Assembly (NCBI GenBank): GCA_000934665.2 | Contig: JYFJ02000514.1 | Location: 124,001 to 171,947, forward strand | Reading direction: 5' to 3' | Source of the DNA: Catajapyx aquilonaris | Lineage: Eukaryota | Length of the DNA: 47,947 nt | In this document: piece by piece, positions 2,116-39,993 of the stretch | Position numbering within the stretch: the first letter of the stretch is position 1 | Layout: each line of letters opens with the position of its first letter | Notes under the pieces: model-generated | Seen by the model: the letters and a program-made list of their open reading frames with translations, nothing else | The model's database searches: none | What the model was told of the DNA's origin: nothing | Program-made: the position numbers and the translations under genes

Positions 2116-2262
2116 GGGTAGGGGTTCTTCGTATCACACGGCCCGAGACAGATTTACCGTCCTGCAAACACTAACGCAACAAATCTAATGCACTCCAGCA
2201 GTCTTGGAGAATAGCAGGAAGGAATGCAATAATGGTGTTACATTTTCTCTTTTGTTGTGCAG

Positions 2263-8200: not shown

Positions 8201-11200
8201 TTGGCGCTGGTTTTGGCAAACTGTGTGCGGTCGTTCCCTCAATGCGCGTTGCGGGGGAGAAAAAAAATTGCCAACAGTTGCATTACATTTCGAGTGCATT
8301 TTGACGTCAATTGAGCTCAATGCAACCGGTGCATTTTCGCGAAGAAATTGGCGCAATGTTGCATCCTCTCTCTGCTGGATATATAGCAGTTGGCGCAGTG
8401 TGTTTCGCTAGTTGCCCATTTATCAACCAGCTTTCTGGCGCAAAGCTAAAGGAAAAGTCGTGGGAGGGAAAGGGGGCAGATAATTAGGCAGAAAAGATGG
8501 CTTCGGGGAAAAAGAGGCTGTAAATTCTCGGGGCGGGCAAATATTCCTTCAAACTGTTATATATGAATTAGCCGCCGGTGTCTGGGAAAGGGGAGGGGGT
8601 GACACCTTTCAAAAATAATATATGGCCCCCCCTCCCACGAATATACGAGGGGGTCACTTACAGCCTTGCACTCGATGCAAGGACTTTAGCGGACTTTAAA
8701 ATATGCATACGTTAATAAGCAAATTGCACTGTTGGGAAAAAATTAGCTAAAAAGTTGGGAGAAATTTTGAAATATTAAACTTGCTCACATGTTCAGTAAT
8801 ATTTTTTATTGATAAGGTTACACACGGTATTTTTTGGGAAAGGAAATTGCAAATTTAATCATGCGGCACATTTTTGGGGGTACGATCCGATACTCCCAGT
8901 CGCGGTGTTTGAGTGACAATGTGTCGGGCCAAAAAAATATATTTGCGAAATAAAATTTGGAGCGAAGGATTTATCGCTCCGATCGACGTGGTTAAAAAAA
9001 TGACGCCGTCACGCTTAATGAACTTGGGAGGGACATTAATACCTTATTTATATGCGATTAGATTCTGCGGAAGTAGAAACTTTTTCGGATGGAGCGATCA
9101 TTGATTTAGCGTAAGTTCATCATGAAATCTGGGGATGATTTATGTGGACACACATAATTATAACGCGAGCCAGGAAAACTTTTTTCCTCTTCGGAATATT
9201 AAATAATTTTAAAAAAAAGAAGCGGTGGCATAATCTGACCATTACCAGATAAAATGAGGCTCGCTTTAATTATACGGCTGCAAACTTTGCCACGCGTTCC
9301 ATACCGCGCATTAGCCAAATACCAAAAATCCTCTCTGGAAAACGTCACGCAGAATCGTCTGGCCAAAATTAATCATTTTTTTTTTTGTAGTTTGCAGGAA
9401 ACAGAAGTGGTTGGCACGCGAAATGGACAGAATTTGGCACACAATTTCGCGTGGTTGTGATATCTCGGCATGTATAGTGTATGTTTGATGAGACAAGGGG
9501 GCATTGTGTGGCTTTCGACGACGTGCGGATGAGCAGCGTGTGTCGGTGACGGCGCCTTGTCCACAATCCGAGGCCAATCTGGTCTGGCGGAAGGACACTA
9601 ACGAGGCCATCTGACTGAGAAATGTCTCCCTGGTGGGCGACTCGTTTGCGCCAGGAAAGAACTACGTCGACGCAAAACTTCCAGGACCTTGCAATAAAGA
9701 AAGAGAGAGAGAGAAAAAGGCGAGGAAAAAGTGCTGGGTGGGGGGTTATGCCTCTTTACTTGCGTGCATTACCACTTCCTCCAGGGCAAGCGTACCATTA
9801 CCATTGATGCCTTTTATGGTACAGCGGAGAGGAGCTCTGAAAACTTGCAAACTGTCCTTTACGCCATTTTTTTTGCCTCCCTGTAAATGGTGGCCTATAG
9901 GTTGCTTTAAAAATCACTTTTTTTTCTTCTTCTTGCAGGTCACTGTACGATAACAACATACAGTCTCTGGCCAACGGGACCTTTGACTCCTTGAGAAGCA
10001 TCCAGACGCTGTAAGTACTCGATTTAGTTGGGGCTAGACTTTGCAACAAGACGAAGAGAACAGAAATGCATCATAAAGCCAGCCAGCCATATCATAAGTT
10101 CAACTACGTATACAAATACTGATGGTTGCTATCTATTAAAATATAAAATTTTATTAATCATTATTTAAAGAAACTAATACACTGTCCGGAAAAATTTAAC
10201 ATTTCTGATTGGTTAAAATCCTTCGTTGTATGGTTATGCCTTCTGATTGGTCCGCCGTATAATGTTACCGCGACGCTTCCGATTGGGCCCCATTCTGCGC
10301 AGGCGCAATGGGGGTGGAGTCAGCGCCTCTGGTTGGTGGGAGGAGGAACCATCCATTCGTTCGCTGTGGGCCGGAGGGTCTACTTCGCTCTCTCCCCACC
10401 CCAGCACCCAGTGAGCGAAGCGAGTGTTTTCAAGGCTATAATATTAAAATCCTTGCGTTGTTTGCATAAGCATTCTGATTGGTCCTCCGCATATTGTTAC
10501 CGCGACACTTCCGATTGGCCCCTCACGCAGAGTCGTTTCTTTGACACTGTTTACTCGTATTGTTGAGGTCATTTCCATAAGTAGTGAATTCTAATGATGT
10601 CCTCCACCACCACAAGGCGCAGGCCTAGAAAAAAAGAGAACGAAGCTAGGGTGTTTCTAGTATTCTTTTAAAATATAATAAGTAGTGTGACGTCACCATA
10701 AGTTTAGTATACGTGATGGATTCGGTCTCTTGATGTCCAGTTGCCTCTGACCGATTCCAATATTTGTACCGCATGGTCGAAACTGGGGCTGCATAAAAAA
10801 AGCTTGAAATCTCGGGCATCTTTCTCTGGAGCTTGATATCCGGAGTCTGCTGGTGCTGGGGCTGGACCTTAGAGTGAGTGGATCATTCCGACGCCTCCAG
10901 CTTTTTGAACCTTTTCCTCTTGATCGAGCCAGACGGAGCCCAAAAGCCACTGAAGTTACACCGAGACGAAATAATACTTCTGGTTGACGTCTCTCTTTCT
11001 TCTCAAGACATTGCTCGCTCACTGAGATAAAAAAAAGAAGAGGCATAGCCTTTTGTGACATGCATCCGCTGAGCTGAGGGAAGAAGAAGAAGGACCTATT
11101 CTCTCTGTCCTTTTTTTGTCTTTTCATGAGGAAACTGCTCTTAATACTGGTCCTTTCCCCTTCCCCCAAAAAATGTTCCTTCCCGCCCCCCATTTTCTCG

Positions 11201-14200
11201 CCCGATGCTCGTCAGATATCGAGCATGTTCTTGGCAGCGGAACTAATCTCTATTTTCCACCTCTCAGACGACGCGAAAGGAGGTGTGTATAGGCGAGAGA
11301 TGATCGAAATAGGATTCATATTTCATATAGCGGAGAAGGAACCCTCGGAAATATAATATTGCGGGGCTCGATTGAATCTGATATTGGCACTTATTCTGCG
11401 GATTTACCGCTTCTCGTGTCCAGCCGGAAACGAGTTGATGCTGCTGCTGGACCGTTTTTCCCATTGGAAATGTGCCAGATATGCGTGTAGGTCTCCACAT
11501 CATCTGTGGCCCTTCCTAGAAATCATAATTTATTTGGATATGCGAGGCGGTTCAGCTGCAAAAAGCGTCACTCCTCGCTTCAGACACTCACCAAGAAGAA
11601 TCTATATACAATAACAGCAAATATTTCAATTCATTTAAACACAGGCTGGGAATATATTTTTTTGTGTCTACAAAAGGGAGGGTTGCTTGCTTTTCTGCTG
11701 GAAAGAAGTTAATTGGACGTACGACCCTTCCAATGCTTCAGGCAGGTGTTCTCGGCAGGAGGGGGGGTTCCATCCTGACGTTTTCCAAGCCCTCCCCTGC
11801 AGTTTCTTGGTAGACTATGTGGATGCTGCCACTCCATTTTTATTCTCCACGCTTGCTTAACCCTCTCTCCCTCATCATCATCTTCATACAAAGTTGACCC
11901 CTGATTGAGTTACGGATGCAATAGGGCCAATGGATAGAGCCAGTCAAAGGGGGGGATCGTTTAATTGCTTTTACGCTTGATTAAACCCAGCAAAGGCTCA
12001 TTCCGCCCCCTTTAATCGCTGAATTTTGAAGCCCGGAAACCCAATCTCCCATTTAAGCAAGGACGCATTTTCTAATGGAATTTCGCCAAGATCGGAAAGA
12101 TGAAGGTAACTGCCCAAGTCACGGTCCGTAACGCCATGTACAGTACCGTGCAAGATGAATATGAAAACGAATCATCTTAGGTGGATTGCAGCTATGGACG
12201 TGTACACATCAGCACATACCAATTTGCTGTCATGTTAGTCGATCCATCAATTCATCTTATCCTTTAATAAAGCCTCCCCCTCCCCTCCTTCTCCTCCCTC
12301 CCCTGGAATGAAAAGTGAAGGATTTTGGGGGGAGCGGCTACCTACCAACCAACTTGGGGTCTATCTCGTCTTCACCTCAGGGGGCGGGTAGGGAGAGAAA
12401 ATTGGACGGATGAATAGATGGATGGACTCGGGGGTTTTTCGGTGGTGGGTATATAGTAGGTGGGTTTATATGAGAACCGCACCCACCATTCTCTCCCTCT
12501 GATTCCAACCCTAAAGCCCTGTAATATTGGCTGCCAACATGCCAGTGGGGGCGGTTGAAGGGAAGGGAGGGTGAAACAAAAGCCCCTGAGGGGTCGAGAC
12601 CGACTTGATGCGGTTCCTAATTGACCGCGGCCTCATGGCCCAGGCTCTACCTTCCGCCCAAAATTGAACCGGCAGCTTGATTGGATACAAAATCTCCAAC
12701 CTATACACAGCCACAGGTGGACTAACCATCGCTCTTCGACACTTGCCCCCGACTGGTAATATCACTAGAAAAAGTCTCCGCTGAAATTAACAATATGACC
12801 TCCACCACCGCAGGTCGCAGGCCTAGGAAAAAAGCGGGTGGCTTTCTACGCATGCGCCCTAGAAAAACTTAGTTCGCATTTTTCTAGCGATTAAAAAAAG
12901 GCATCTAGAGGAATTTCTGCCAGTTTGTCACCATCAGTCACGTTGGTCTGACGTGACGGGCCGTGACATGCGAATGCCCACCCCCAAATTAGCTGTTTCC
13001 CGACCCCCAATTCGGCCACGATCCGACACTTTTTTTTTCCTTCATTTCCACCCCCAACTGGCTTGAAGGGAGGGAATTAATATTCGTGGCGGTTGGCCGA
13101 AGATAAGATAGGCAAACTGGAGTGAAATATGCTTTCCTTTTGCTACTAAATTACCCGCGCGGCTTCAGGCCTCCCTCCCGCCGCGGTGTGTATCAAGCGA
13201 GAAAACGCGCGCCGGAAACGCACTCAATCGTTCCACTATATTCCGAGGACGAAAATCCCCGATGGAAACCTCCCACCAGAATTATTTACTCGCAGTGCCT
13301 AGGCTACTGAATTACTAATAAATGGCTCAAGTTCAAGCCACATTTGCCCAATTGCGGATCATGCAGTTGATCTATTTAAAAAAAGAAGAAGAGTAGGGCC
13401 ATATTTGTTAATGAATTGGATGACTGGTGTTGTATTACAGCAACTACAGCCTGCAGCTTTTGGTGGGTCGGGGTGTGGAATGGACCCACGTTCTCTCTCC
13501 CCCCTACCCTTTGAAATATAGCTCCATAACTCTGCCCGTTGTCATCGTCGGAGCCGCCTCCTATTTTTTCCCCCTCTCCTTCTTCTACCCAGAGGATATT
13601 CCGCAGTCTAATGGGCCTAATGGCATCCCAGCCACTTCTTTTTGTCTCCTCCAACCTTTTTAAAACCCGGGTGTAAACAACCGCCTTTTCTACTGTTATC
13701 CCACCCGATTAATAATAGACGCGATCCATTCAAGCATCGCCATTGTTACGCGCGTTTAAAAAGGAGCCACGATTTCGTAAACACGCGCCATTTCTGCTTC
13801 AAGCTGTTAAATGCGTAGCGGCTACGGGAAAACAAGGCAGCAGCTACGGGATTTACGGTCCAAATTTTCCCGCTAGATGACACCACCGTCTATTGCAAGA
13901 TGGCGGCCTCCAGTGGCGCGGGTTTTTCAAAATCTGTCTAATTTCAAGCGAGTAAGTACTTCTGCTCCAAGTACTTACAATGTGAGCGCATTGCTGCTCT
14001 TTACTATGGCCAGATATTGCATACTCACATGACAGGTTAAACATAATGCACATACGGCACATGTGTTTTCTCATTATAATATTATTGGACTGTAGTCTTG
14101 TGGACTGATTTCACTTAAAAATGCCATTTATTCCCAGCCACCTTGCCCGCAATCCGTTCATCTGCGACTGCAACCTGAGATGGCTGGCGGAGTACCTTCA

Positions 14201-17200
14201 CAGGCATCCGGTGGAGACGTCCGGAGCAAGGTGCGAGGCTCCAAAGAGGATGCAGAGGAGGAGGATCTCCTCCATGAAGGATGACAAGTTCAAGTGTGAG
14301 TGTCCCTCAGCCAGGATATACATTGCCTGGCCATGTCTAACCGAGACATCATCTTTACCCCACAGGTGCAGAGGAATTCCGGACCAAGCTTGCTGGCGAG
14401 TGCATGATTGACAGCGCGTGCCCTTCCCAATGCCAGTGCGATGGAACTGTCGTGGATTGCTCCGGAAGAGCGCTGCAGGACTTGCCAAAGGACGTGCCCA
14501 TGTACACCACAGAACTGTAAGTCCCTCTTCGAAAGAACACTAGGCAGCGTCTAACGTACCTGTTTGGATCAGGCTGCTGAGCGACAATGAGATCAGTCGC
14601 ATCCGTGCCGAAGGATTCTTCGGGAGGCTGCCGAACCTGAAGAAAGTGGACCTCAGACGGAACCGCATTGCCAGCATTGAAGAGAATGCGTTTGAAGGTG
14701 CCGTCAGGCTGTCTGAACTGTGAGTGTTCCGCCGCAGTAGTGTCGCGGTTACTGTTCTAATTCCTGGATGCTTCCAGTCTCATTGGTGAGAACAAGCTTC
14801 GTGAGATCCACAACAAGATGTTCCTCGGCCTGTACAATCTGCGCACCCTCTCCCTGTACGACAACCAGATCACTTGCGTGGTGCCAGGATCGTTCGACCA
14901 CCTCACTTCCTTACACACACTGTGAGCATTCACGATATATTCAGCGCAAAGTACTTTGGAGTTAATGGCATGACTTATTTCCATCATCAGCAACCTGCTG
15001 TCAAATGAATTCAACTGCAACTGCCACCTGGCATGGTTTGCGGAGTGGCTGCGGAAGCGGGACTTGACCACGGGCAACCCCCGCTGCCACCAGCCCCTTC
15101 GCCTGAAGGAGGTGGCCATCCAGGACATCCCCGGCCACGACTTCCGATGCACCAGCGACAACGACCAAGGTTGCCTTGGAGAGAACTACTGTCCACCCAA
15201 GTGCACCTGCACTGGGACCGTGGTCAGATGCAGTCGAACCAAGCTCAGGGAGGTGCCCAAGGGGATCCCTCCTGAGACGTCGGAGCTGTACCTCGATGTC
15301 AACGAGATTCAGGTCGTGCATCAGGACCGGCTCAATCACCTGAAGCAGCTTACCAGGCTGTGAGTATGCAGAATTCCAGATAAATATTACATGTACTTAC
15401 TGTTGTTATCTGCGCAGAGACCTGAGCAACAACCAGATAGCGGTGCTGTCGAACCAGACATTTTCCAACCTGTCGAAGCTCTCGACCCTGATCATTAGCT
15501 ACAACAAGCTGCAGTGCATCCAGCCAGAAGCCTTCTCGGGGCTCAAAGCACTCCGAATACTCTCGCTCCACGGAAACGACGTCTCCCTTGTGCCTGAAGG
15601 ATCCTTCCAAGATCTCACGTCCATTACGCATTTGTAAGTTTCAGCCGTTTATTGATGAATTTGAATTAATTCACTTTGTTCTAGAGCCCTAGGTGCGAAC
15701 CCTTTCTATTGTGACTGTCACCTGCGCTGGCTGTCCGAGTGGGTCAAGCGCGACTATGTGGAGCCAGGGATCGCCCGCTGCGCCGACCCGCAGCCGATGA
15801 GGGACAAACTCCTGCTCACTTCACCAGCGACCGCGTTTGAGTGCAAGACCAAAGTCAGCACCGAGATACTGGCCAAGTGTGACGCCTGCTTCACCTTTCC
15901 CTGTGCAAACGGGGCCAGTTGCCTGCCTCGCCCAAACAGGGAATTTCACTGCCAGTGTGCTCCCGGTTTCCACGGCCGCCATTGCGAGGCCATGATCGAC
16001 GCTTGCTACGGAAACCCTTGCGCCAACCAGGGGACGTGTAAGGTGCTGGAGGAGGGACGGTTCAGCTGCCACTGCCCACCAGGCTTCGAAGGCGACCGAT
16101 GCGAGACCAACATCGACGATTGCATTGCTCACAAGTGCGAGAACAACGCAACATGCCTGGACATGATTAGCGAGTACAAGTGCATTTGCCAGCCAGGCTA
16201 CATGGGCGAATACTGCGAGCGCAAGATTCCCTTCTGCACCAAGGAATTCAACCCATGCCGAAATGGCGCATCGTGCGTGACGAATCTGACGCACTACGAA
16301 TGCGAGTGTACCTCTGGCTTCTCTGGTCCAAATTGCTCCGTGAACGCTGATGATTGTGTGAACCATCTCTGTCAGAATGGCGGCACTTGCGTGGACGGGG
16401 TGAACAGCTACACCTGCAAGTGTGCAGCGGACTACATGGGGAAGTACTGCGAGATTGCCCCGCTCGTGGCCATGCTGTACCCGCAGACATCGCCTTGCCA
16501 GCATCACGACTGCAAGAATGGGATCTGCTTCCAGCCGCAGGGTTCCAACGACTACGTGTGCAAGTGTGCGCCTGGGTACACAGGTAGGATTGCTCTCATG
16601 TGGGTTTTTCCATTCATGACCATCAACCGGTTAATTGCAGGGAAGCGCTGCGAGTACCTGAGCAGCGTGAGTTTAACGCACAATACGTCGTACGTGGAGC
16701 TTGAACCCCTGCGGACCAAACCAGACGCCAACGTGACCCTGACCTTCTCGACGGACGAGGAGTTCGGAGTGTTGCTGTACTGCGGAGAGAGCCAGCACTT
16801 GGCTGTCGAGCTGTTCAAAGGCCGCATCCGGGTCAGCTACGATGTTGGAAACTACCCCGTCTCAACAATGTTCAGCTACGAGATGGTCTCGGATGGACAG
16901 GCACACACCGTCGAGCTCTTGGCCGTCAAGAAGAACTTCACGCTGAGAGTTGACCAAGGGATGGCCAGGTCAGTGTCGCCGTCATGCACTATGCGACAGT
17001 GCTGCGTCACTTGACCGCTTGTTTCTAAAATCCAGGTCGATTATCAACGAGGGCGACCGCGAGTTCCTCCGCTTGGCAACCCCTCTGTTCGTGGGTGGCG
17101 TGCCGCAAGACACGGGCGTGTCGGCGTTCAAGCAGTGGCACCTCCGCAACCTGACCTCCTTCAACGGCTGCCTGCGGGAGGCAATAGTCAACCACAAGCC

Positions 17201-17788
17201 GGTTGACTTCCTAAACGCACGTCGCCAGCACCTGGTCACCCCTGGATGTGCCCATGATGAGGTCGAGGCTCCCCAGGACGTGGCCACGTTGCAAGAGGTG
17301 GCCGCTGTTGCAGTGGAGGCGGACGAGAAGGCCGTGGCGGCGACCCTTCCCCTGTCGATGGCCGCGGCTGCTGTTGGCGGGACCGACGCTTGCAAGCAGC
17401 ACCGATGCAAACGAGGCAAGTGCTTCCCCAGGCGGGACAACCGCGACTACGCCTGCAAGTGCCAGCCTGGATGGAGCGGGAAGTACTGCGACCAAGGTGA
17501 GTCCAAGAGATACAAAACCCCGAAGCATCTCGTCTCTTCACACGCACGCACGTTGTTGCAGCCCCAACGTGCCGCAAGGAGCAGTACCGGGACTACTACA
17601 AGGAGAACGGTTGCCGCAGTCGCAAGCCAATCAAGATAGCCACCTGCACCGGTGCTTGCGGAGACAACTGCTGCAAGCCCAGGAAGACCAAGCGGCGGAA
17701 AGTCAGGCTCATTTGCAACGACGGCACCCGCTACATCAAGGAGATCGAGATCATACGCAAGTGCAGCTGCACCAAGAAGTGCTACTGA
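2263..17788 (+). CDS. slit: Slit axon-guidance ligand, 5'-partial (about 1200 aa in window: LRR domains D2-D4, EGF1-6, laminin G, EGF7, cystine knot)
   Basis: 16 phase-consistent GT-AG exons: 2263-2404, 4467-4538, 5407-5478, 7190-7261, 7935-8006, 9939-10010, 14138-14295, 14366-14516, 14573-14719, 14778-14921, 14991-15359, 15418-15633, 15685-16583, 16641-16968, 17036-17496, 17562-17788 (TGA). Translations include [62 protein letters not shown], the cleavage-site motif LYPQTSPC (PQTSPC at 16481-16498) and the insect-like C-terminus KCSCTKKCY. Seven EGF repeats, as in invertebrate Slit. Confidence 0.97.
10213..10530. repeat. Two diverged ~88-bp direct repeats rich in GATTGG; probable transposon relic
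   Basis: 10213-10302 (ttaaaatccttcgttg...ttctgattggtcc...tgttaccgcgacgcttccgattgg) matches 10444-10530 (ttaaaatccttgcgttg...ttctgattggtcc...tgttaccgcgacacttccgattgg). Confidence 0.7.
12763..12889. mobile_element. 127-bp CACTA/EnSpm-like miniature element
   Basis: Ends CACTAGAAAAA / TTTTTCTAGCG, flanked by AT on both sides. Its internal cctccaccac..ca....gcaggcctag sequence recurs at about 10586-10662, indicating a dispersed family. Confidence 0.5.
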
Positions 17789-18286
17789 AGTCACCTCTGT
17801 TGAAACAACGCGATTAAAAGGAAAGATAATTAGCAGGGTGCCAAAAAACAAAAGGTTGATCAGTCTTTATAATATAGTAAATGTGGATATCTGGCAAGGA
17901 GCAACCAAAATAATCATTACGAGAAACAGACTCTTAGGCACACCTTTTCTTTTTTCAATTATTCATGCCAGGTGCTTCTTTCACGCCATTTGTTATTAAA
18001 TTTTTTATCATTTCATTACAATAATGATTTGGCCCCATCCTTTGGCATTTCTCGCTTCTTTGAAATGAAACGTTTTGCTGGGTGTGAGCAAATGTGCTGT
18101 AGGCGGTGTTTACTACTTTTTAAACGGAAGAGAGAGAAAAGAAAGCGAGGAAAAGAAAAGTCACTCCTACAATTTTACAGTTGGCTAAGATGTTTCCCTG
18201 TATGTATTTATATAATGCAAATTTATCTCCATTTTAGAGAAGAGGGAGGGGTAAAATAATAATTCATATCTTAGAGTATTGTATGA

Positions 18287-20891: not shown

Positions 20892-23800
20892 CTATCTGGG
20901 TCTGATCTTCATGGCTGCTCTTCTGAGAGAGTACCATCCCTTCCAGTGGTACCAGATGACACCTTGACCGTCTTGGCCGTGCTCTCCCTTGAGATAAACT
21001 CCGTTCAGATTGGACTGGAGGCATGAACTGTACCACCAGCCACCCTTGTGCCTCTCTGCGCAGTTCCATCCACCAGAACGATCGTTGTCCCTGTCTCTTG
21101 TGGAGAAGGCCTGCCCATTGTGCCAGTCCAGAGATTCCCCCAGGTCTCCTCCTCCCGGTCCCCCATCCTTCCTCTGGTACCCTCCCACAGTCAGCCTGTA
21201 CTTCTCCCCTTCCCCTCCGACCCTAAAAGTGTGGTACGAGGCGACCCTCTCCTCCCCCTCCCAATCCTCCAGCTCCACCCGGAGGACCATCGGAGTAGTG
21301 GAAGTGGTGGTCAGGCCGTGGATGGCCTCCAGACCTGTGAAAGGGACATAATTACACTCGGAATGTCACTGGAATAATTAACATTATTAATTGTTATCGT
21401 TTGAAATGAGCTTCTAACCAGCGGTGGACCAAAGCGCGATTTCCATGGAGCAGTAGTGACAGACGCTATTTGTCCCTCATGAAAAGTGCGACTTTACAAG
21501 TGACCAGCGATTTTTTAAAGCGCGACGTGATTTGTATCCAATCGCGGCTTTTGAACTGCTTCCGAAGAAGATGCTTTTGCTTAATACCAATTTAGAACGT
21601 TCCGAAACCTAGTGGAAAATAATAAAGCATGCAGACTTGTGGGTCTACATACATGCTACACCAAAATAATAATCTTTGACCTACGCCCTCCGGAAGTGGC
21701 TAAAAATGACCGATACTTTTTAATGAGGTAGGCTACATGGTGGTGGTGGCATGGTATAGGCCACAAGAATTATTGCATTTCAGTAAATACAATGGTGCTG
21801 TAATTACTCTGACGCGAAGAATGTGTCTCCTACACATACCACAATCATACTTGAGTCTGCAAAGGTTAATATTTCCCCATGTTCAGGCCAAAGGAACGAT
21901 GCAGTGCTATGGAATGACCCAGGATTGTGCAAGTGACCGTACCGGATTTTGCTATGTATAACTTCCCGGATTTCACTACTTTCCGATACTGCATTACACT
22001 TATACCGCATTTGATGTACCCATCTCTTTGGTTTCGAGGCCGTTTACTTTGTTCTACATCTTGTGCAACTTGCCATTTCCCATCGGCCATTGCGGTTTTC
22101 TTGCCAACCTCTGTACGCAGTCATGTGACTTTTCCATCTGCATACTCCCATCATGCACCTGGCTCACTATATCAAGGAGTGAGCCGTTTCGCTCGAGGCC
22201 TTTTCCCGGGAGAATATCCCGGGGACTGGTCAGGCCACTTGTTTGGTTGACATCTCCCATCCCCTGACCTTTTCCCCTCACACACTCACCTTGACGAAGA
22301 ATAAACTGTACTTGATTGTCTACCCACTGGCTTTTATGTTCATCCAACCGGTGACATGCGCATTAAAAGTAATCCGAATGAAATAAGAGCAAAAACATTC
22401 CCTTCAGTGAAAAAAAAAAAGAGAAGTAAGACCTCCGCGGCGGAATGAAAGTACAGAAACAAGGCAGGCGCACTTGTAAGACCTTCACCAATTGATTTAA
22501 GCTGTACCATATAGGTCTTATACTCAAGCAATTACCAATTCGCTGCTCATGAAGTCTCCTTACCGAAAACAATTTGTAGAATTTTCGTCGTAATTACTAG
22601 TTACTTATTCTAACTGAGCAGTACCAGCGTAGTGCAATGGTATAGTGCTACTGCAAGTTAGCAGTAACTGTAGTTGCTAGTAGTACGACGAAAATTCCAC
22701 CCATTAATATTTTCCATGAGCCAGTCGATATTAGTGTTTTCTGGAATTAGGAACTTCAATATTAAGCACATTGAATTTCTATGCGATTGATTGGTGCGAA
22801 TTATTGCCATGAAACATTCACACAGAATCGTCACCTCTTTTATAGAGGCTGCTGATTTTAACCCTAATGTATAATTTTTCACATGTAAACGTAAATTGGT
22901 GAATTTTGGAGGGTCCTTTTCCATTGGATTCTGCATTTTCAGGAGCGAAAATGTCCGCCTTGGGTTCAGTTTTTTAAATTAATTTTTTCAAAATAAAACC
23001 CTGCCTGCTGCTCTGAGTAGTTTGCAGCAGTAATTTTTACGGGGCGTTCCATACAGTACTTGAGAATTTATTGCTTGAGTAAGACCTGTGGTACAGCTTA
23101 AATCAATTGGTGAAGGTCTTACGTGCGCCTGCCTTGTTTCAGTACTTTCATTCCACCGCGGAGGTCTTACTTCTCTTTTTTTCACTCAAGGGAATGTTTT
23201 TGCTCTTATTTCAGCTCTTTCTTTAAACCCCTTATTCGCAATACCAGCTATACCGCCATCGCCTAGGTTGTCGCTTGCAATAAATTACTCTCAAGATAAG
23301 GACAAGATATTTTACAAATAATAACAGCTACAGTAATACATGTAGGATCATATCATACTGACATGTTTATGCTCAACACTACAGTCTGCACTATGAATGC
23401 ATTGGAGACGATTTTCGTCGCTTAGAAGTCCCTAAAATTATTTTCACAGAGATATAGTCGTAAATAAACGAAAGTCGAGTGCGACTGGTTAACGCAACGG
23501 TAAGTCTGATTTAATTATTAAATAGCCTATACGTTAAAATATGCGGAATATGCCTACATTGAGAACCACGCCAGACGAATTTGCTGAAAACGTGGCACTT
23601 TGCAAGAATTCAATCGATATACTTATCTCTGCAGCTTGCCTTCGTCACATCTGCAAACTCCCAAACCTATTTAATTTTCGCGAAATGAGATATCCAATTC
23701 GTCTGGCATGTTTCTCAAGGTAGATATTCCACATACTGTAAGATAATTTCATAATTAAATCAGCTTAAGAGTCGGCCGGTAATAGCCTACAGGGTGGGGT

Positions 23801-26800
23801 TAAAGCGACGCAGCATGGCGTGAGTAACGAACGATTATATTTATGCAAAAATTACACTGCACAGAGAAAGATATGCCATTTATGGATCGATGAAAGTCAC
23901 TTCTTGAAAACAACACTAGAGAGATGTCCACCTTTGCACTGTTTGCAGGCAACACAGAGTCCTCCAAGCTCCGCACGAAACCCTTCATATAACGAGCTCC
24001 AGCATGTCCAGGGGAATGTTTCTCACGGCGTGTCTCATCTGATCCTTAAGATCAGCCAATGACTGAGGACCCTGGGTGCGCCACTACTGGTTGTACACTA
24101 TAGAAATGCTACGGAGGACCTCCTATAATAAGGAGATTGGCATCGCCTTGCGTTCGGGTGTGTATGGAGGTAGTCCAAGATAAATATTCAAGATTTTTTT
24201 GCGAATAATGCTACATTTCTATGAACTAAGGCATGTTTTAATTTAAACCTATGTTTCTAGATAGAGTGGGAACAAAAATATAGCCGATTCCTTGGGGGGA
24301 TTACCGACTATGAATTTTTAAAATATTGGTCCCTCTGTTTGACTGGAAATAACTCCCAGGCAAATGATACGGATAGAGAAAATTATACATAGTTCGAAAT
24401 GGTGTTTAAATCTACGTAGGACATATGTGAGTTGTTTTCCTATCGTCAGTGCGTAACTTTTTATCGCAAGAAGAAGGAGGAAAAGTGGAATTTTGTGACT
24501 ATATAGTTTCCGACGTTACGCTGAAAATGGATTTTTTCTGACACTTTCAGGAGGTTAAAAATGCCCCTGTGAACCCTGGATGGTGCAGACATTTTATAGA
24601 GGGGGGGGGGGATGCCTCCATGAGACCATGACTTGGGGGGGGNNNNGGGGGGCACTGTTGGACGAGGTGTGGCCTATCCTTGTGAAATGGTAAAATGGAA
24701 CCGATGTCTTTAGACAAAATCAGTTGCATCACGACGAAATGGTGTATTACTGATAAGTATGTCGTGTAATATAATACTGTATGTAAGATCGATAGGCCTG
24801 CCAATCCACTCGCCTGCTGTGATGGTGACAACAAGTGATAAGAGTGCAACTCACCCAGCCAGAACTCCCCTTCCAGATCACCAAACCCTCTCTTGTAATC
24901 CGCCCATCCTCGATTGAAGTTCACGTGAGGCTCGATCTCGTCCCTTCTTTGTATGACCGTCCACCCTCCTCCATCCGTGGTCATGTCGCAGTACACCTGA
25001 GGACGAGACAACACTAGTTACTGACTTAAATCCTATTAATTCCACATGATGAAGCCCACTACCATTCAGAGCGAATGCGACCTTTTTCTCACCTCGACAA
25101 TTTTTCCAGCGATGGTCACGGTGTACACGCCAGAAGAGCAGTGCCCTCGTTTCTGGAGGTCATAGCAATTAGATGGAGGAAGTGCGGAACGCGTCGGGTC
25201 TGAAAGAAATAGTCTGAATCAGTCTTCATTCATTTCGTCGTCGCAAAACCGGTCTGTTTTTCTAAACTCTGCCAACATCTTTTTCCACTGTTTTAAAAGC
25301 ATCCCTTACAAGTATTTGGCTCGGTTATATAGGCCACAGTTCCATTATCGCCCTGCCTATAATTACTTCCTGTATACCTCACCATGGTCAGCCTTTTGCT
25401 ATTGGTAAAACTAGAAATATTCCTGAAGCATATACCCATGGGAAAGGCAGCACTCACGTTCTTCTGTGATTGTGACAGGTCCAACAGTGTCTTGTTCCAG
25501 TTCCCCTTCGTCCGAAAACAACTGGACAGTCACATTGTACTGCTTGCATGGAGTGAGGGGTTTAGTTGTGGAGTAACGGCATCTGCCGCTACTTGTGTTG
25601 CAAGCAGTAGTAATATCTCCATCCTCCTGAAGTGATTCGTCGTCACCTGTGAAAGTCGTTCTGAGACCGTTGGCCCTCTTCAGAGCGCACTTTGCACTAT
25701 CAAACTGAATCTCAATCGCCTTGGAGCCGATGGACCAGGCAGTCAAGTTCACGATGGCCTCTGAAAATTCGCTTACCATTAATGCAACAATGTTCGATAA
25801 TAACAATAATGTAATTATATCTCACCATTGTCTGCGTATGTGGCCGAAGCAGGCAGGTAAACTGAGACCTCATGTCCGTAACTCCTGGAGTCATTGTAAG
25901 CTATGCTGACGCTGAGGGTGTAATCAAAGCACTTATCCAGCGGGTGACAGAAATCAACACTGCAGGAAGTGTCATCGCACGCGTCGATGTTACTTGTGTA
26001 GGAAGTTAGCTTGCTCGTGTTTGAAGCCTTTGGAGTTGCAGACAGCATGTATTTTGACACATAAACCTGGTTGCTTAAAGGCGGAATCCAGTTGAAGATG
26101 ACACTTCTTCTCTCCTCGTCATCCGCATCCTCGTCGTCACTTGATATGTGCAGGTTGCTGACTGTGCATGCACGAGAATAAAAAAATATTAAGGAAAAGT
26201 TCATCTCGCCCACTTCCCTTTGCCTGTTTGTGTGTCTGCGCACTTCCGGAGTGTCCCCATCCCTGGACAGCGTCCCACCCATCCCCGGTGACATTTTCGA
26301 ACGTGACTATTGCTTCTCTGAAGTGAACCAGTGAGACACAATTCCATAACAGCTTTTCTTCAAAAGGTGTAAGTGTAACTTACTATTCTTTATCAGGGCA
26401 AATAATTATAAGCACAAATAAAGTCCTATTAATATTTTCAACCAACAACGCACAGAATACGGAAGCAAACGATCTGTTTTCTTACCAGATTGGGTTGGGC
26501 AGACAGTTGCGTTGTTCACCATATCCGCCACCGATGAGGTGATTGTGTCCACTGCATGGCTGGAATGGATTGCACGTATTTTGAAGAAATAATATTAGGC
26601 CCACATGGGTCAACATTCAGTCAAACCACTTTCTTAATCATCACTGGCTGTTTTACCGAACACACAGTCATACCTTCATAATCTAACATTCTAACATGTT
26701 GAGAATAGATGACTGTGATGACATCAGAATTATTTTACCCCTGACTACATTGGTGGCAATAAAAGCAGTTTGGTTGACACGTGGTTGCTCACTTACCTCA

Positions 26801-27245
26801 ATTCTTCTTTTAGTGATTTGATTTCCTCTTTTGATGATTTCATTTCCTCCTCCAATGATTTCAATCCCTCTTCTAATGATGATTTCATTCCTTCTTTTAA
26901 TGCTGTAATTTCCTCTTCCAGTGATGCCACTTCCCCCTTGATGTCTCCCACTTGTCGTGCTGCAGAATGAAAAAAAGGAAGAGCATATTTAACGGTCTTT
27001 AACGAGACTTGATAAATATCCATCGGTCCCTTATTACCTGATCGAGCAAATCCATCCTCTATTAGGCTCATCATTGTTTGTATGGCCAGTTCCAATCGGT
27101 CTATCTGACTGGGTTCCTTTGGATGGACACCAAGGGGAATGTTTTCGGCGGCATTGTTTGTCAGGGCCAGGGAACGATTTACCTCTGATAGGAACAGAAG
27201 GGCGGCCAACAAATAGTGGACAAAACTGCTGATGTTGGCCATCAT
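20892..27245 (-). CDS. Secreted fibrinogen-related (FReD) protein with N-terminal coiled coil and two FN3-like modules, 591 aa
   Basis: 8 phase-consistent exons: 27245-27038, 26959-26797, 26559-26486, 26161-25826, 25760-25458, 25199-25093, 24996-24855, 21334-20892 (1776 nt, no internal stop). Hydrophobic leader ([13 protein letters not shown]) and SLEEE/SLKEE heptads. FReD motifs: [54 protein letters not shown]. The FReD call is firm; the FN3 call is by eye. Confidence 0.88.
21932..22356 (+). mobile_element. Probable solo LTR (425 bp)
   Basis: Ends in CGGTGACA; start AGTGACCG is a degenerate TGTCACCG. TATA-like CTATATCAAGG near 22167, then AATAAA at 22300. Flanks tgca/tgcg resemble a decayed 4-bp target duplication. 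Confidence 0.4.
22379..23213. repeat. Long inverted repeat pair (about 150-bp arms); foldback/MITE-like
   Basis: 22379-22532 is the near-identical reverse complement of 23070-23213 (tgaaataagagcaaaaacattccctt...gaccttcaccaattgatttaagctgtacca...actcaagcaat). No clear target duplication. Confidence 0.85.
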
Positions 27246-31762: not shown

Positions 31763-34406
31763 TCATTGGATCTGGCGAGTCGGGCCACATGCCACTCGAG
31801 AAAAGCACTGCATCATCTCCATGTGGACCTCTGGGATTGACGGTTGATGAGCGCTGATAAAGTTGTCATGTTCGTGTAGGTACACGGCCAGTGCAGGACG
31901 ATCCCATTTGTACCTGAAACATACATTTCAGAAAGCGACAATTACTGATATGATGATTTCTTCCAGTTATTGCTGACTGTGGGCAACATGCCGGAACAAC
32001 TCACCTGGCCCGCATCCTCTTCACAAATTGATCCATTACTGAGCTGTTGGATGAAGTATTCTTGTACGTGAGGAAGAGCAGGGTGAGACTAGCGAGATTC
32101 TCCAACACATCTTCCACCTCCGAAAAATCAGCCGGAGCCAGTCCGTCAACAGAACAGTCCATGTACACTTGATTAAGCTGTGAGCAGTTCAGCAAGGTGC
32201 GCAACACCACAGGTACTTGGTCAAATGTCTGCTCAAACCTGTGGTAGCAATCACAAGATGTTAAGTTTTCCCAGTCACGTGGTGACAGCCAGTAAAATCC
32301 ACTAACCAGAATTCCTGAAGGTTGCTGCAAAGCTGCAGGGCGCAGAGCAAATCAGCAGTGAAGGTGCAGCGATCCCGCAATCCCAACTTTCCAAGTCGAA
32401 GGCTTGCAAGGTCTGGACATGACTCAGCAATCTGAAATTCAAATGAAGTTCCGTCATTAACGAAAGCTTCACTTTACAATTTACGATATACAGACCTCTT
32501 TCAGGAAGGATCCGCGACGTGAGATTGGAATGCCGTACAATGTAAGTCTCTTCAGCTTGGTCCACCGGGCAATCAGTCTCATGGTCCTGTTGGGCACTCC
32601 GTATCTGTTGACGCAGTTCCTGCAAGGCAAACGTGTGTTGGTCATGTCGGCAACATGCACCACGGAGAGTAGCTCTGTACCTGTACGGGCAGTGACTATC
32701 TAGCGTCACCAGTTCTAACTCCTCAACCAGGGGGCAATTTGACACAATGAGAGAAAAACCTGAGGATTCATTGGGACTAGAATAATCGAAGCTTTCTTGA
32801 AAAGCTGTGTAAGCAGCAGCACCGCCACTCCGCCTCTTCGCCCAACACATGAAATCCTCATGGTTTGGAGGCTGTCTTTCTATAAAGCACAAGTCGTGTC
32901 GATTTAGACCAACAGCCCACAACGGTCTAACACAAAGTGTCTCTCACCCTTCAGTGGGCAAGCAGGAAGGGCGAGTTTCCTCAAGTTCTTCAGCAAGGAG
33001 ATCCCTTCGCACATCCTCTCTTGGTGGTTTCCATTACACACACAGTCACCAAGAAGGTTCAGTTCCGTGATTCCCAAGTGGACGGCACAAAATCTGGGCA
33101 AGTCCTATAAAAAGTTCAGGTCACATTATTACGACTGACAAATGGGGAGGCAAGTAACGAGGAATTACCAATTGCATGAGGTTGGCGTTGTAATTAAACG
33201 CTTCCAATCCCGAGCACTCCAATTGGACGGGTTTGTCGCAATCATGGGAATTGCAGTAAAAGACATTGAGTCGCGAACAACGTAGCTCTTTTGTCGGTAC
33301 AGCAGCCAGTTTTCCCACGGAAAGTGTCATCATCTGGGAACTTGACACGTTCCTGGGCCAGAAATCGTCTTCTTCATTTTCTTCACACATCACTCGGCAA
33401 TACACTCTGCTGTGAAAACGCACCTCATGCAACTCGTCTGCAGAAAGAAGGAAACATGTAGTAAAATACGTGGACAAGACAAGCGAATCCTCACCTCTCA
33501 TTACGCTGATTGGCGTGTCGAGCCAGAATCCATCCCATTCTGTGCTGGAACTAGCAATTGCAGCATTAAACCCAATGAGATGTGTATCGTGGAAATGCAA
33601 CATGCGATTGGCCCTTGCGACGTAGCGCTTCAGACGCGGAAAGGACATGTAGCCAGGGAGAGGCCACCTCCACCAATTCTGACCATCGCCGTAAACAAAC
33701 ACGAGGATCAGCTCGTGCAGGTTGCAGCACCACTTGAGGAAATGGAGCAGGAAGATGTGCGAATAGTACAGCGGGATGTGGAGTCGGAGGGAGACCAGTT
33801 TGGACAAGGACAGCTCCATGGCCCGCTTGTACTCCAGGAAGAAGAACTCTGAATCAAACTCGTTCCAGCTCCATGAAAGGTGCGTCACCTGCAACGGAAA
33901 GCACACGGCTCATTTTCATGGCGCGTGAACTTGCTGCAATTACTTACGTTCTTGAGCGACTTGAGTATTTCGCAGAGATGGCCGTACTGAAGCTGAGTGC
34001 CGTTCAGACGAAGGTGGGTGATGTTCCTCATCTTGGAGATGCAGCTGGAGAGGAAGGACGAACTGAACCAGTAGCAATCGTCCAAATACAACCGCTGAAC
34101 ATGTGAGCGCCTCAATGGCGACCGCAGGAACTTCTTCAAGTCGCATTCCTTCAGACGTGTCTCGCCCGAGAAGTCAAGCTGCCTGCAAATTTGCGTATCG
34201 TGCGGTTACAATAATTGTCATCCCCGGATATGATTGCGACAGTACCTGACAGCCCTTGCGGTGTGCAAGACCTGGTCGAACTGGACGCACACCAGCGACA
34301 GCGACACCTTGTCGTATCCGTCCAGGTAGGAGAAGATCTGCTCCAGTATTTCAGGCAGGAGGTTCTCCAGCGTGGGCGGTGTTGGCCCGCCTGCCCAGCC
34401 CGCCAT
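31763..34406 (-). CDS. FBXL18: F-box/LRR-repeat protein, FBXL18-like, 682 aa, intact
   Basis: 10 phase-consistent exons: 34406-34246, 34182-33948, 33888-33495, 33437-33169, 33104-32948, 32879-32681, 32619-32496, 32431-32307, 32238-32005, 31913-31763 (2049 nt). F-box LENLLPEILEQIFSYLD..DKVSLSLVC. FBXL18-type motifs LYLDDCYW, LRKLALPAC, CPLVEELEL and the C-terminal RPALAV...IPEVH...FSRVA. Orthology not tested. Confidence 0.82.
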
Positions 34407-35016
34407 TGTTACGTCCCTGGTACAGATTATAACGAAAAAAAAGGGGAGGGTGACACTCTCAACACAACAATGGAGGCTAAAATATGGGTCTCTCTCTTTC
34501 CTGTATAACCTGTCAGGGATCTGGCAGCGCAGGAGACGGCTGCGGATGTGTCTTTCCAACAATGTAGGCGCCCCGTGCTTTGTTGTGGGCCAACAAACGA
34601 CGACAGGAGAGGAGATGTTCCCACGCCGACAATGGGGCCGACACCTTTTGTCCAGTGCCGGTTGGCTGCACTGACGGCACCTTCCACCCGGCACCAACGT
34701 CATTAGAGCACATCTGGTACTGCCGATTTTTAATAAATTGCGATTAACCTGAATATGATTGAATGGACGGTCATGTTTAGCTTATTTGAATGAAATGGCG
34801 CGGGATTGGCTGTTGGCAACATTGCCGGAAGCTATTGTGGCGCCTCTAGTGGCGCCGTATGAGGCGGGAGATTCGAAAAAGCAAAATAATAATCCGAACA
34901 ATAATAATCATCATCATAATCAGTGAAGCGTGCCACTTTTTGCTAACAACAGTCCAATCAGATTCGCCATACACATTTTGTTGCGTTTATTCCAACGTTC
35001 CATACATTTCATACAG

Positions 35017-36844
35017 CTAGGTACGCGGTGCATGCCCCCCCTTCAACCTGCAACAAACATGTGGAATTTAAAATTATTGACATGATCCTGAATTGCTCGT
35101 TGGCTGGAAGCAATTTCAACGACACTTACCGAGAACATATCAACTGGGTGAGTCTGCCTGGGGTTGCTTCACACACATAAAAGAACAAGCTGAGTCTGGT
35201 TGCCTTCTTCATCGGGATCCTCCACAGCTCCCAGCTCCGCAGGATGCAGCCAGTCCCTGCAGTCCAGGTACAATTGCTTCAGACGGGGGCAGCATTGCAA
35301 GGAAAGCAGGAGCTCAGATTTGCTGCCCGGCAACTCCTGCTCCAACCTAGGATAATTTTTAATTTCCTCGACATGAATGCAAGTTCCCGGAATGCGTACA
35401 AATTATGCGGGCGACTAACCAGAATTCCTCTAGGTTACTGCACAGCTTCAATGCTTGGTATAAGTATGGGGAGTACCAGAGGTTATTCTGTAATCCCAGC
35501 TTTCCAATGCGAATGCTGACTAAGGCTTGACATGACCCTGTGATGTTCCAGGCATAATTCAACATTAGAAACAGACCTCTGGCAGAAAGGATCTATCAGT
35601 GATCGGAATATTATGTGCAGGGTCAAACGCTTCAATTTGTTCCACTTGGCGATCAATTCCATCCCACCGCTCAGCACAGGACCCTCACCAAGGCACTTCC
35701 TGCAAGACAATGTCATAGGCAACGCACACACTAAAAAAAACTGTTCAACACGACACATACGTATCACTTGTATTGGCTATCTCAACCTCCTCAACCAGTG
35801 AGCATTTTGTGACATGTAGAAGAAGACTGAGCCCAGCACATCCTTACGCCTCTTCGCGCAGGAGGGACTTGACGCATCTTGTTCTAGAAAGCAGATCAAA
35901 GTATTTTTTAACGTGGCAAGAATAAGCAACAAAGGCAGTCGCAGGTTCTGAAACCAACCTGATTCGTCACCGACCTATGATCAGACTTTTAGCTTTTACG
36001 AAGCAGGCAGGGAGAGCAAGCTTCTTCAGGTTTTCCAACATGGAAAGCATGCACCACCTTAGATGCTCCGTCCCACACACACAAAGATTTAGAATGTTCA
36101 GTTACGTAATTTGCCGATGGGTGGAAAAGAATCTAGCGAAGTCCTGAAATTTTCACATATATTATGAGATTGCAATACATGAAAACCAGTCATTAAAAAT
36201 TACCAGTGAATGGAACTTGGACTGGTAATGGAATGATTGCAGGCCTTGACCTTTAAAAGGAACCGTTTGAATTCACTCTGCAAATCAGGAAGCATCTCGC
36301 ACTGATGTAGCTTAAGCCGAGGCATATTTAGCGACTCTGCACCGAGGGAACTGAGAATACTTTTCCATGGGATTGTTGCAATCTGGCCATCCGGTAATTG
36401 TTTGGGCCAGAAATCCATTTCACCATCACCTCTGCAGGTCATGTTGCGCAGATGTTGGGAATTATCACTTTCCAGTAGGTCTTCTGAAAGGTTAGAAGTT
36501 GTAAGCCAAACCAAGAGCTCTTGGCCAAACATAATCATGGCGATGCAGACGACTCACCTCTCATTAAGCTAACGGGTGCGTCAAGCCAAAAGCAATTCAA
36601 CGCTGAATTGGAACCAACAGCTTTGGTAATGAGCCTGATTATTCCTGCATCTTCTCCAGTCATTGGGCGTTCAAGGATCACCGTGAGGCTGGTGAGGCAT
36701 CTGAATGACACCTTCACGCTCACATCCAGCCACGCTGCATTGTTGGGGCATTCCCCAGCAGCCACAAAGACAAGGGACAATTATCCTTTCCACTATGACA
36801 TCGGGCAGCTTCACAAGACTGGACCCTGCTGGACCATCCCCCAT
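35017..36844 (-). pseudogene. Unprocessed tandem pseudogene of the FBXL18-like gene
   Basis: Collinear similarity and shared intron positions (FWLDAPVSLMR|gt vs FWLDTPISVMR|gt; LKKLALPAC; IAKWNKLKRLTL; CSNLEEFW|gttagt). Lesions: F-box start MGDGPAGSSLVKLPDVIVERII fused out of frame near 36780 to exon-3 sequence; frameshifts near 36275, 35612 and 35220; in-frame TAA at 36104-36102 where the paralog has GAA; acceptor AG changed to AC at 35546-35545. Confidence 0.88.
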
Positions 36845-36921
36845 TTTGCGAGATTTAATAAAAATATAAAATAAATCTTGCTACAAAAACGTGCTTCTCC
36901 CGCCGCCGCCACCACCACCAG

Positions 36922-36936
36922 AGGCCGCCATATTGG
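36922..36936. promoter_or_regulatory. YY1/Pho-type motif in the short divergent intergenic region
   Basis: GCCGCCATATT matches the GCCGCCATNTT consensus and lies between the divergent starts at 36844 (-) and 37208 (+). Motif match only. Confidence 0.3.
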
Positions 36937-37207
36937 TTCCCAACAGGATTCCCAATCCCAGCCTCTCCTGCAATCCCTGGTGATAAATTAATCGATTAGT
37001 GTCATTCTAAAATTGGACAATTAGGATAAATCAAGAGTGATCGAAATTTATACATAAATAATTTAAAATTTTTGCGTCACTTGCCCCCCCTCCCCTCTCC
37101 CTGGCCTTGGGTTCTGTTGGCGACACTGCTGTTGTCCTACTGTACTGCAGCTGTAGTTGACAGGTTTTGCTCTGCTCGTTCTTTTCTTGATAATTATCCA
37201 GCCAGAG

Positions 37208-37668
37208 ATGCCTCCTGTGAACAAGGAGGATTCATCTCGAGGGGAGAGGTCTCCTGTTGCTGCAGACACGGAGCAGCGTTCCAAGGAGGAAGCTGCAGGA
37301 GGAGCCCCCCCGCGTCTGCTGGGAAAGAGAGAAGGGCACAGGAAGAGTGGGGAAGGTATATACACCATACAGTACAGTACAATAAGTATTATTAGAGGCC
37401 AGTTCATTTCATTGCCTGTGGTTTCCATGTTCTGCCAGCAGTGTTGAGCCGTGGTGAGGCGTCTGGCGAGGAAGCCCCACCTGCAGCCAAGAGGCTGAGG
37501 CAACAAGAGGATGAGGATGGTAACGACGACGGCGACGACGACGAGGATCTCCGGCAGATGATGGAAGTGGAGAGGCTGAAGAAAGTGATGATGCGGATAA
37601 TGCGCAGTGTCGACGAACGCATCGGCTCCCTGGAGCACGACATACATGCCGTCGACCCGGACTTTTAA
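37208..37668 (+). CDS. Hypothetical 125-aa acidic protein with predicted NLS
   Basis: Exons 37208-37355 and 37439-37668 join in frame (GAAG|gtatat...ccag|CAGTG, tandem CAGCAG acceptor). GC-rich relative to its flanks. PPAAKRLR, an acidic run and an amphipathic C-terminal helix. No family recognised; the 5' end may be incomplete. Confidence 0.6.
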
Positions 37669-37860
37669 GACTTTCCTGCCGTGCTGCATCCGGCGGGATT
37701 TAATGTATATTTTTCTGTTATAAATTACTATCAGACGTAACAATGAAAGTTCATCCATAATATTCAGGGCTCGTTTTTGTAGAGAGGTGACCTATATTCC
37801 AGGTGCCTGCAAAAACTTAATTTAATTTAAAAAGGGGGAGTATAGTGTGTGGCTACATTC

Positions 37861-39586: not shown

Positions 39587-39993
39587 TGTAAATTGGCCAA
39601 ATTAAATGGCAATGCTTTTCATTTTGTACATCATTTGACGTTATTATCTATACCAGTAGTCCCTGGTTTACAAACGACCTGACTTACGGCGATCCGTACT
39701 TACAAACAGGCTCCCAAGACTCCCGGGAAGGAAAATTTCTAATTATTTCTCCACTTTAAATCACTTCTGCATATGCTGACCGACACCAAGTTCAACATAA
39801 ATACTGCAAAATTTATAACGCAATGTACAGGTTTCCGATATACTCAGGGTCTGTTACGGACAGGTCTCACTGTATGCTGTACATCAGTAAAAGTGGAGAC
39901 GACCAGATTTTAGAAAATGTGCTATCTGGTAGCTATGCCGACATTTGGGTGAAATGTGGGATATGCTCGTAGAGAGTGGCTTAGAACAATGTA

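Follow-up and report, generated by a model that had tools for sequence, protein, structure and literature searches.

The window, by which we mean the whole analysed stretch of 47,947 nt from contig JYFJ02000514.1 (positions 124,001 to 171,947), contains a lectin gene on the minus strand that runs from 27245 to 20892 in eight exons and whose 591-residue product ends in a fibrinogen-related domain (FReD). Between the stalk and the FReD lie two fibronectin type III (FN3) exons, which were brought in by a single insertion of intron-containing donor DNA and were then duplicated into five copies. It is nearly certain that this DNA passed into a lectin gene from a family of FN3-array and receptor-phosphatase genes.

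Gene model, FN3 modules and the FReD family

All seven introns are of the GT-AG type and the single frame has no internal stop, so the continuous eight-exon frame proposed in the first-pass annotation holds. Exon 1 (27038..27245, on the minus strand like all the others) bears the start codon, a probable signal peptide, judged by eye from the hydrophobic N-terminus, and the beginning of the helical stalk; it was placed by 65 homologous exons in the genome and by a contig joint at 27038/26959. Exon 2 (26797..26959) consists of coiled-coil-like repeats, and its length ranges from 100 to 190 nt across the five FN3-bearing copies with the phase kept. Exons 1 and 2 have weak Pfam matches, mostly to coiled-coil families. 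The heptads of the stalk are imperfect, with a best share of hydrophobic residues at positions a and d of 0.75 in residues 48–75 and of 0.59 in residues 76–135, and trimer prediction for exon 2 gave a score of 0.02. Exon 3 (26486..26559) closes the stalk with 24 amino acids, including one cysteine (C144), and ends in phase 1. Intron 1 (27037-26960), which is spliced out in the contigs, is 78 nt long, in frame and free of stops, and its retention would preserve the frame.

Exons 4 (25826..26161, 336 nt) and 5 (25458..25760, 303 nt) encode FN3 modules 1 and 2, respectively. Both are symmetric phase 1-1 exons, as had been claimed, and their amino acid sequences are 77–81% and 64–73% identical to those of the donor modules. 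The FReD is spread over exon 6 (25093..25199, first part), exon 7 (24855..24996, middle part) and exon 8 (20892..21334, C-terminal part and stop codon), the last of which retains the calcium-site aspartates and has a remodelled acetyl pocket. In Pfam, the protein matches Fibrinogen_C with E-values of 1.8e-42 and 1.7e-17, and its fn3 matches are weak (E 0.042–0.14), under the cut-off.

Relatives found in this genome were aligned for the folding of each module (24 rows for module 1 and 22 rows for module 2). AlphaFold produced a seven-stranded sandwich for both, with a predicted local confidence (pLDDT) of 82.5 for module 1 and 91.6 for module 2, and in Foldseek both models drew lists full of FN3 domains, from fibronectin, monobodies, contactin, LAR and CD148. 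Moreover, VIA-align of module 1 against fibronectin type III repeats gave a Z score of 11.1 and a root-mean-square deviation of 2.1 over 90 residues, and the atlas look-alikes are fn3 clusters. Both modules are predicted to have FN3 folds, and their earlier description as FN3-like is borne out by AlphaFold, Foldseek and VIA-align. When module 1 alone was used as a homologue query against a large protein set, none of the 104 candidates scored, which is weak evidence. A profile-profile comparison of the module 1 and module 2 alignments was discounted because these alignments have rows in common.

In the genome, the last exon of the gene has 153 matches, exon 7 has 134 and exon 1 has 65. The exon layout was read at 64 of the 65 exon-1 loci, some of them cut by contig ends, and most of the 64 encode just a signal peptide, a stalk and a FReD, exon 3 being followed directly by the first FReD exon. 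Two FN3 exons are present in five of them, namely the window gene, C257, C5289, C6682 and C7725. The solved structures closest to the window FReD are ficolins (113.6 bits), followed by tachylectin-5A (98.4), FIBCD1 (97.2) and tenascins (at most 91.4). The first-pass annotation had proposed a FReD phylogeny as a check, and in a quick tree of 31 rows the window FReD groups with paralogues that lack FN3, inside a lineage-specific clade (Shimodaira-Hasegawa-like approximate likelihood ratio test, SH-aLRT, 99), apart from the FReD of an amphioxus tenascin-X-like protein, the sole tenascin-like FReD in that tree. The gene had also been taken as possibly belonging to an undescribed immune-recognition family. 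This stands in so far as the FN3-bearing genes form a small gene family of five copies, and it fails in so far as they are derived members of a large lineage-specific FReD family.

The DRDND motif of the window protein and both cysteines next to the pocket align to M-ficolin and are conserved in the family, and the two calcium aspartates are retained in 37/37 and 36/37 family exons. The five acetyl-pocket positions vary widely, including between the window gene and C257. As far as can be read from the sequences, a frame that stays constant around a variable pocket is what characterises a recognition repertoire. As a separate observation, the sister genes L035, L062, L065 and C1906 (L037) have in common a deletion between window positions ~26507 and ~25181, by which exon 3 is fused to exon 6 and intron 3 is gone.

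Donor, empty sites and breakpoints of the captured segment

The captured segment (25413..26335, minus strand, ~925 bp) is absent from the empty-site sister genes and holds a cut-off upstream exon, FN3 exons 4 and 5 and the intervening intron. In a DNA search with window positions 25400-26340, all ten candidates matched the segment: five FReD genes at 93–100% identity, four FN3-array loci at 79–80% and one partial match. The donor-like loci C77, C2238 and C2271 carry both exons within long arrays of FN3 exons, while C12376 is a 2-kb contig, and in the stretches read no FReD exon was found at any of the four. At C77, the array is continued in the same orientation by a PTP_tm region, a hydrophobic helix (judged by eye) and a tyrosine phosphatase domain, with domain scores of up to E 3.9e-12 for fn3, 27.5 bits for PTP_tm and 65.2 bits for Y_phosphatase; judged by its domain order, this is the layout of an R3-type receptor tyrosine phosphatase. 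The FN3 layout of the window gene is not due to chance, because the same exon layout occurs at four further loci of the genome. The source of the segment is placed at the level of this gene family, as represented by the four donor-like loci, rather than at a single locus.

Some other features of these loci were observed. C2238, C2271 and C3926 contain tandem genes of long cysteine-bearing FN3 arrays with one FN3 per exon, which are related to the ectodomain of the C77 phosphatase, and whole blocks are 65–93% identical between loci. The phosphatase gene in C77:8000-17999 is followed by more phosphatase-domain exons at ~C77:10800-9200, which may be a second gene or a duplicate.

The donor homology (26335-25413) covers both FN3 exons, the 65-nt intron between them and ~45 nt of the next donor intron, and it also takes in the last ~100 nt of the preceding donor exon. 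This preceding exon is whole in all four donor loci and cut off in the window gene, where it remains as a scar (26234..26335, minus strand, with 26234 as an approximate limit): the 3' end of the donor's upstream FN3-type exon is now intronic and severed from its acceptor, and contigs have no depth at 26179-26472. On the host side, the alignment of 13 sister genes that lack FN3 extends to 26334 (to 26347 for one gene) and picks up again at 25408-25412, leaving no more than 6 bases in the gap. Host and donor therefore give the same breakpoints on both sides. At the left junction, a 2-bp CT is common to host and donor. Both junctions are identical in the five FN3-bearing copies, which form one clade on the FN3 cassette with support of 100/100. 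Since the segment begins partway through an exon that the donors have in full, and since empty sister genes exist, the direction of copying was from donor to lectin gene. Thus the donor family, the empty sites and the breakpoints show the independent assembly by phase 1-1 exon shuffling that had been claimed at the outset.

Other routes were considered. Retroposition was rejected because introns are retained in the segment. Transposon capture was also rejected, as the left end lacks the A|TC context and donor homology reaches to ~3 bases from the junction; no terminal inverted repeat or target duplication was found at the segment ends. The right junction reads CTAG|T, which resembles the end of a Helitron. 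Allelic haplotigs were rejected for the window copy, given 81–91% identity over the gene and the location of C257 on a different large contig. The three small-contig copies are up to 96% identical in their flanks and might be alleles. In this event, ~925 bp of intron-containing donor DNA inserted into the phase-1 intron 3, where the frame stays open because both captured exons are phase 1-1, and later duplication led to the five copies. The insertion may have arisen during repair of a double-strand break from an ectopic template, to which the 2-bp microhomology and the lack of detected terminal repeats point.

Foreign modules behind the stalk were found at 7 of the 64 loci read, and they come from three unrelated donors. 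In C1154 (L053:2173-2875), two LDLa-type exons, both phase 1-1, occupy the same intron of a sister FReD gene; the frame is open from exon 1 to exon 7, and the donor lies on C48 with 84% identity. The last exon of this gene bears an acidic Gly/Glu/Asp insertion. In C2715 (L081:8228-4277), exons 1-2 of the family precede a set of lipoprotein-receptor-type exons (LDLa, EGF and YWTD), after which comes a remnant of the FReD last exon. A preference for this slot would need no special mechanism, because a phase-1 intron between domains lets insertions survive. Five other family loci with large gaps (L051, L052, L054, L059 and L061) contain no recognisable captured modules. At L059:1900-5400 (C274), a truncated family gene (exons 1-3) stands just upstream of exons that, by eye, are like those of a papain-family cysteine protease.

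Transcripts, possible constraint and genomic surroundings

The transcript evidence comes from one run of unrecorded type, kept as contigs. We treated it as RNA-like because the contigs skip introns at CT..AC, and introns were used as evidence only through the joints. Besides 27038/26959, joints were found at 25826/25760 and 25458/25199, and a joint of the length of intron 7 (3520) sits 38 bases off 24855/21334. At higher stringency, a contig stops at 26162 and carries 21 extra bases that equal the family exon-3 end and are identical to that of C6682. A 146-nt contig fits the window gene or C257 and crosses no junction, and no contig in this run covers the whole lectin gene. The exon 3-4 and exon 5-6 joints are possible only from an FN3-bearing FReD gene, therefore chimeric transcripts exist, and at least some of the copies have their FN3 exons joined by splicing to the lectin exons on either side. 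Three junctions had been singled out for verification by transcripts: 25458>25199 was seen, 26486>26161 was recovered through the 21-base exon-3 end, but 24855>21334 is represented by the joint 38 bases off, and the letters are mostly those of sister copies.

The frame and the splice sites of both FN3 exons are intact in all five copies. Within the segment, the coding part has two gap runs (both of 3 nt) in 639 nt versus six in 284 nt of the non-coding part, that is, indels are about seven times denser in the latter. The pooled Nei-Gojobori ratio of nonsynonymous to synonymous substitution (dN/dS) against the donors is 0.45; among the copies it is 0.37 for module 1, and a rough estimate for the stem branch is 0.41. 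Constraint on the FN3 exons after capture is suggested, not proven, by these alignments. On the 5' side, the five copies cluster with support of 92/87 (exon 3 and its intron), and exon 1 adds one empty gene to the cluster. They do not cluster on the FReD side, where alignments are short and support is weak, which suggests that FReD heads have been exchanged with sister genes.

A slit gene (~2200-17790, plus strand, with many short introns) lies tail to tail with the lectin gene. Its product is 73–76% identical to the best named matches, which are from hemimetabolous insects, and in a 37-row tree it falls on the insect side (88/97), with its exact position unsettled in that tree. The host is an arthropod, probably a hexapod, and the earlier view of an arthropod-like genome agrees with both the Slit identity and the tree. 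On the other side of the lectin gene there are an F-box gene (~32000-37800, minus strand), with probable additional F-box/LRR-like copies, and an RRP7-like gene (~38300-39590, plus strand).

Probable function of the product and comparison with known systems

We consider the window gene a member of an expanded lectin family into which two FN3 exons were copied at the DNA level, and its product is likely secreted and probably an oligomeric recognition lectin with the FN3 pair as a spacer; we give this reading as a whole a probability of about 0.68. In such a protein, the stalk would oligomerise, the calcium-binding head would bind a microbial or self ligand, and the FN3 pair would let the heads reach farther and may offer a further surface for binding. 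Copies would arise and be lost in a birth-and-death process, and heads would be exchanged with sister genes.

Several observations weigh against this reading. In the accessible text of PMC3908420, the S1 acetyl pocket of FIBCD1 is given as Tyr405, His415, Tyr431, Ala432 and Trp443, together with a calcium site. One of these five residues is kept in the window protein, which has His, Leu, Asp, Gly and Trp when aligned through M-ficolin, and its head probably binds something different from the classic N-acetyl group. The letters of the junction contigs are those of sister copies (6/6 listed differences match C6682 and 4/4 match C5289), and the single window-specific contig, of 70 nt, crosses no junction. 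There is also a weak joint, of depth 3.3, that links exon 3 directly to exon 6 and leaves out both FN3 exons; it fits the empty-site sister genes, or else may reflect exon skipping. For both modules together, dN/dS among the copies is 0.63 with a bootstrap interval of 0.36–1.19, and for module 2 it is 0.98. In addition, two of the five copies are complete (the window gene and C257): the last exon is missing from C5289, the exon-6 acceptor of C6682 reads AA instead of AG and the last exon of this copy is beyond the end of its contig, and C7725 is broken off at an N within exon 6.

The last two of these points also fit a tolerated passenger, in which the same insertion took place and the FN3 exons, near-neutral and functionless, persist in a family of fast turnover because they leave the frame intact: three of the five copies are damaged downstream of the FN3 exons, and the pooled interval spans 1. 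Two further unrelated captures at the same slot, at one locus each, imply that such insertions are frequent in the family. However, FN3 splice sites and frame are intact even in the damaged copies, indels avoid the coding part about sevenfold, the rough stem-branch ratio is 0.41 and the FN3 exons are spliced in, and we hold a passenger to be unlikely. It is quite improbable that the gene encodes a convergent matrix or adhesion protein, whose FN3 pair would keep the ligand binding of the phosphatase ectodomain and would bridge cells or matrix or act as a decoy for the receptor ligand. The better conservation of module 1 than of module 2 (0.37 vs 0.98) and the position of six of the eight N-glycosylation sequons in or beside the FN3 pair are in accord with it, as is the order of stalk, FN3 and FReD, which is that of tenascins in the accessible text of PMC11401434. 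But the tripeptides RGD, LDV, IDG, KGD and RGE are all absent from the window protein, there are two FN3 repeats only, and the FReD pocket differs between the complete copies, which, like the fast turnover of copies, fits immune recognition better. Domain order is also all that speaks for a genuine homologue of tenascins that an arthropod retained or received by transfer, or for an assembly chimera. We give this practically no credence, and the donor and empty-site alignments refute it. Both parents are in the same genome (79–80% and 72–87% nucleotide identity), the junctions are found on five contigs and are crossed by spliced contigs, and the FReD belongs to the lineage-specific clade described above.

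The recognition lectin with an FN3 spacer, which we prefer, can be extended further. The phase-1 intron between stalk and head might be a recurrent slot for foreign modules, the module-bearing stalks might recombine with hypervariable heads into a combinatorial repertoire, and the FN3 form might be a working, independently evolved tenascin-like molecule. We regard this extension as doubtful; if true, the FN3 form would be a readable replay of the recombination between an FN3 locus and a FReD locus that has been proposed for the birth of tenascins. The fusion proposed to have founded the tenascins is too old to see, whereas the same kind of fusion is recent here. In this arthropod, the donor family, the empty sites, the breakpoints, the severed exon and the spliced products can all still be read, and the FN3-less sister genes serve as natural controls. 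The case makes testable both the effect of added FN3 repeats on an oligomeric FReD protein and the idea that a phase-1 intron slot allows foreign modules to be sampled by a family of immune lectins. It further means that a domain string of FN3 and FReD is insufficient to call a protein a tenascin.

According to the accessible text of PMC11401434, tenascins (TNC, TNR, TNW and TNX in chordates) are made up of a signal peptide, an assembly domain that bears cysteines and heptads, EGF repeats of the tenascin type, FN3 domains and a FReD; they were not found in echinoderms, a hemichordate and a xenacoelomorph, a comparison in which no arthropod survey is described, and their proposed origin is recombination between an FN3-bearing locus and a FReD locus. 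The window protein resembles them in the order of probable signal peptide (by eye), imperfect heptads, predicted FN3 modules and terminal FReD. However, it has no EGF repeats, as exon 3 joins FN3 module 1 directly, and no cysteines before the heptads, the first being residue 144, after the stalk. It has just two FN3 repeats in 591 amino acids, its FReD is of separate descent, and the neighbours of its gene are instead the slit, F-box and RRP7 genes. The RhExLE motif was not found in it, with RLELA alone present. Integrin-binding tripeptides are common but not universal in the FN3 loops of tenascins. The tenascin layout claimed in the first-pass annotation therefore survives as the order of heptad-like stalk, FN3 and FReD, and not as regards the EGF repeats and the cysteine-bearing assembly domain; on the sequence features compared here, the window protein is not a true tenascin and resembles one in layout only.

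The family is best placed with invertebrate fibrinogen-related proteins (FREPs), tachylectin-5A included; like these, it is expanded and clustered, with a C-terminal FReD, a helical stalk, a variable ligand pocket and signs of exchange between paralogues. The mosquito FREP family is expanded and clustered (accessible part of PMC1242226), and Biomphalaria FREPs are composed of immunoglobulin superfamily (IgSF) domains, a coiled coil and a FReD (accessible part of PMC12074976). The snail proteins likewise add beta-sandwich modules to a FReD, but theirs are IgSF and those of the window gene are FN3. Compared with FREPs, the window modules sit between stalk and head, and one can still read their donor and breakpoints. 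Tachylectin-5A, ficolin and FIBCD1 have an acetyl pocket that is not preserved in the window protein. The R3-type receptor phosphatases (PTPRJ/PTPRQ-like) and their FN3-only offshoots are the module source and have the same intron between the modules, but the window gene took two of many repeats and has neither a transmembrane helix nor a phosphatase domain.

The database searches were seeded from the window gene and are not an architecture-wide survey. Among 120 listed FReD matches (164 passed), one has an fn3 domain, an amphioxus phosphatase model, and among 150 relatives of the module-2 profile one has a FReD, an amphioxus usherin/tenascin-X-like protein; the rest of the ten relatives that were named are proteins with FN3 arrays or phosphatases, and they come from crickets, stick insects, an amphipod and fish. 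In the literature searched, which did not extend to domain tables in supplements, no description of an arthropod protein with FN3 and FReD was found. Set beside these systems, the capture is a recent, base-resolved case of exon shuffling by which an arthropod lectin family has convergently arrived at most of the domain order of tenascins.

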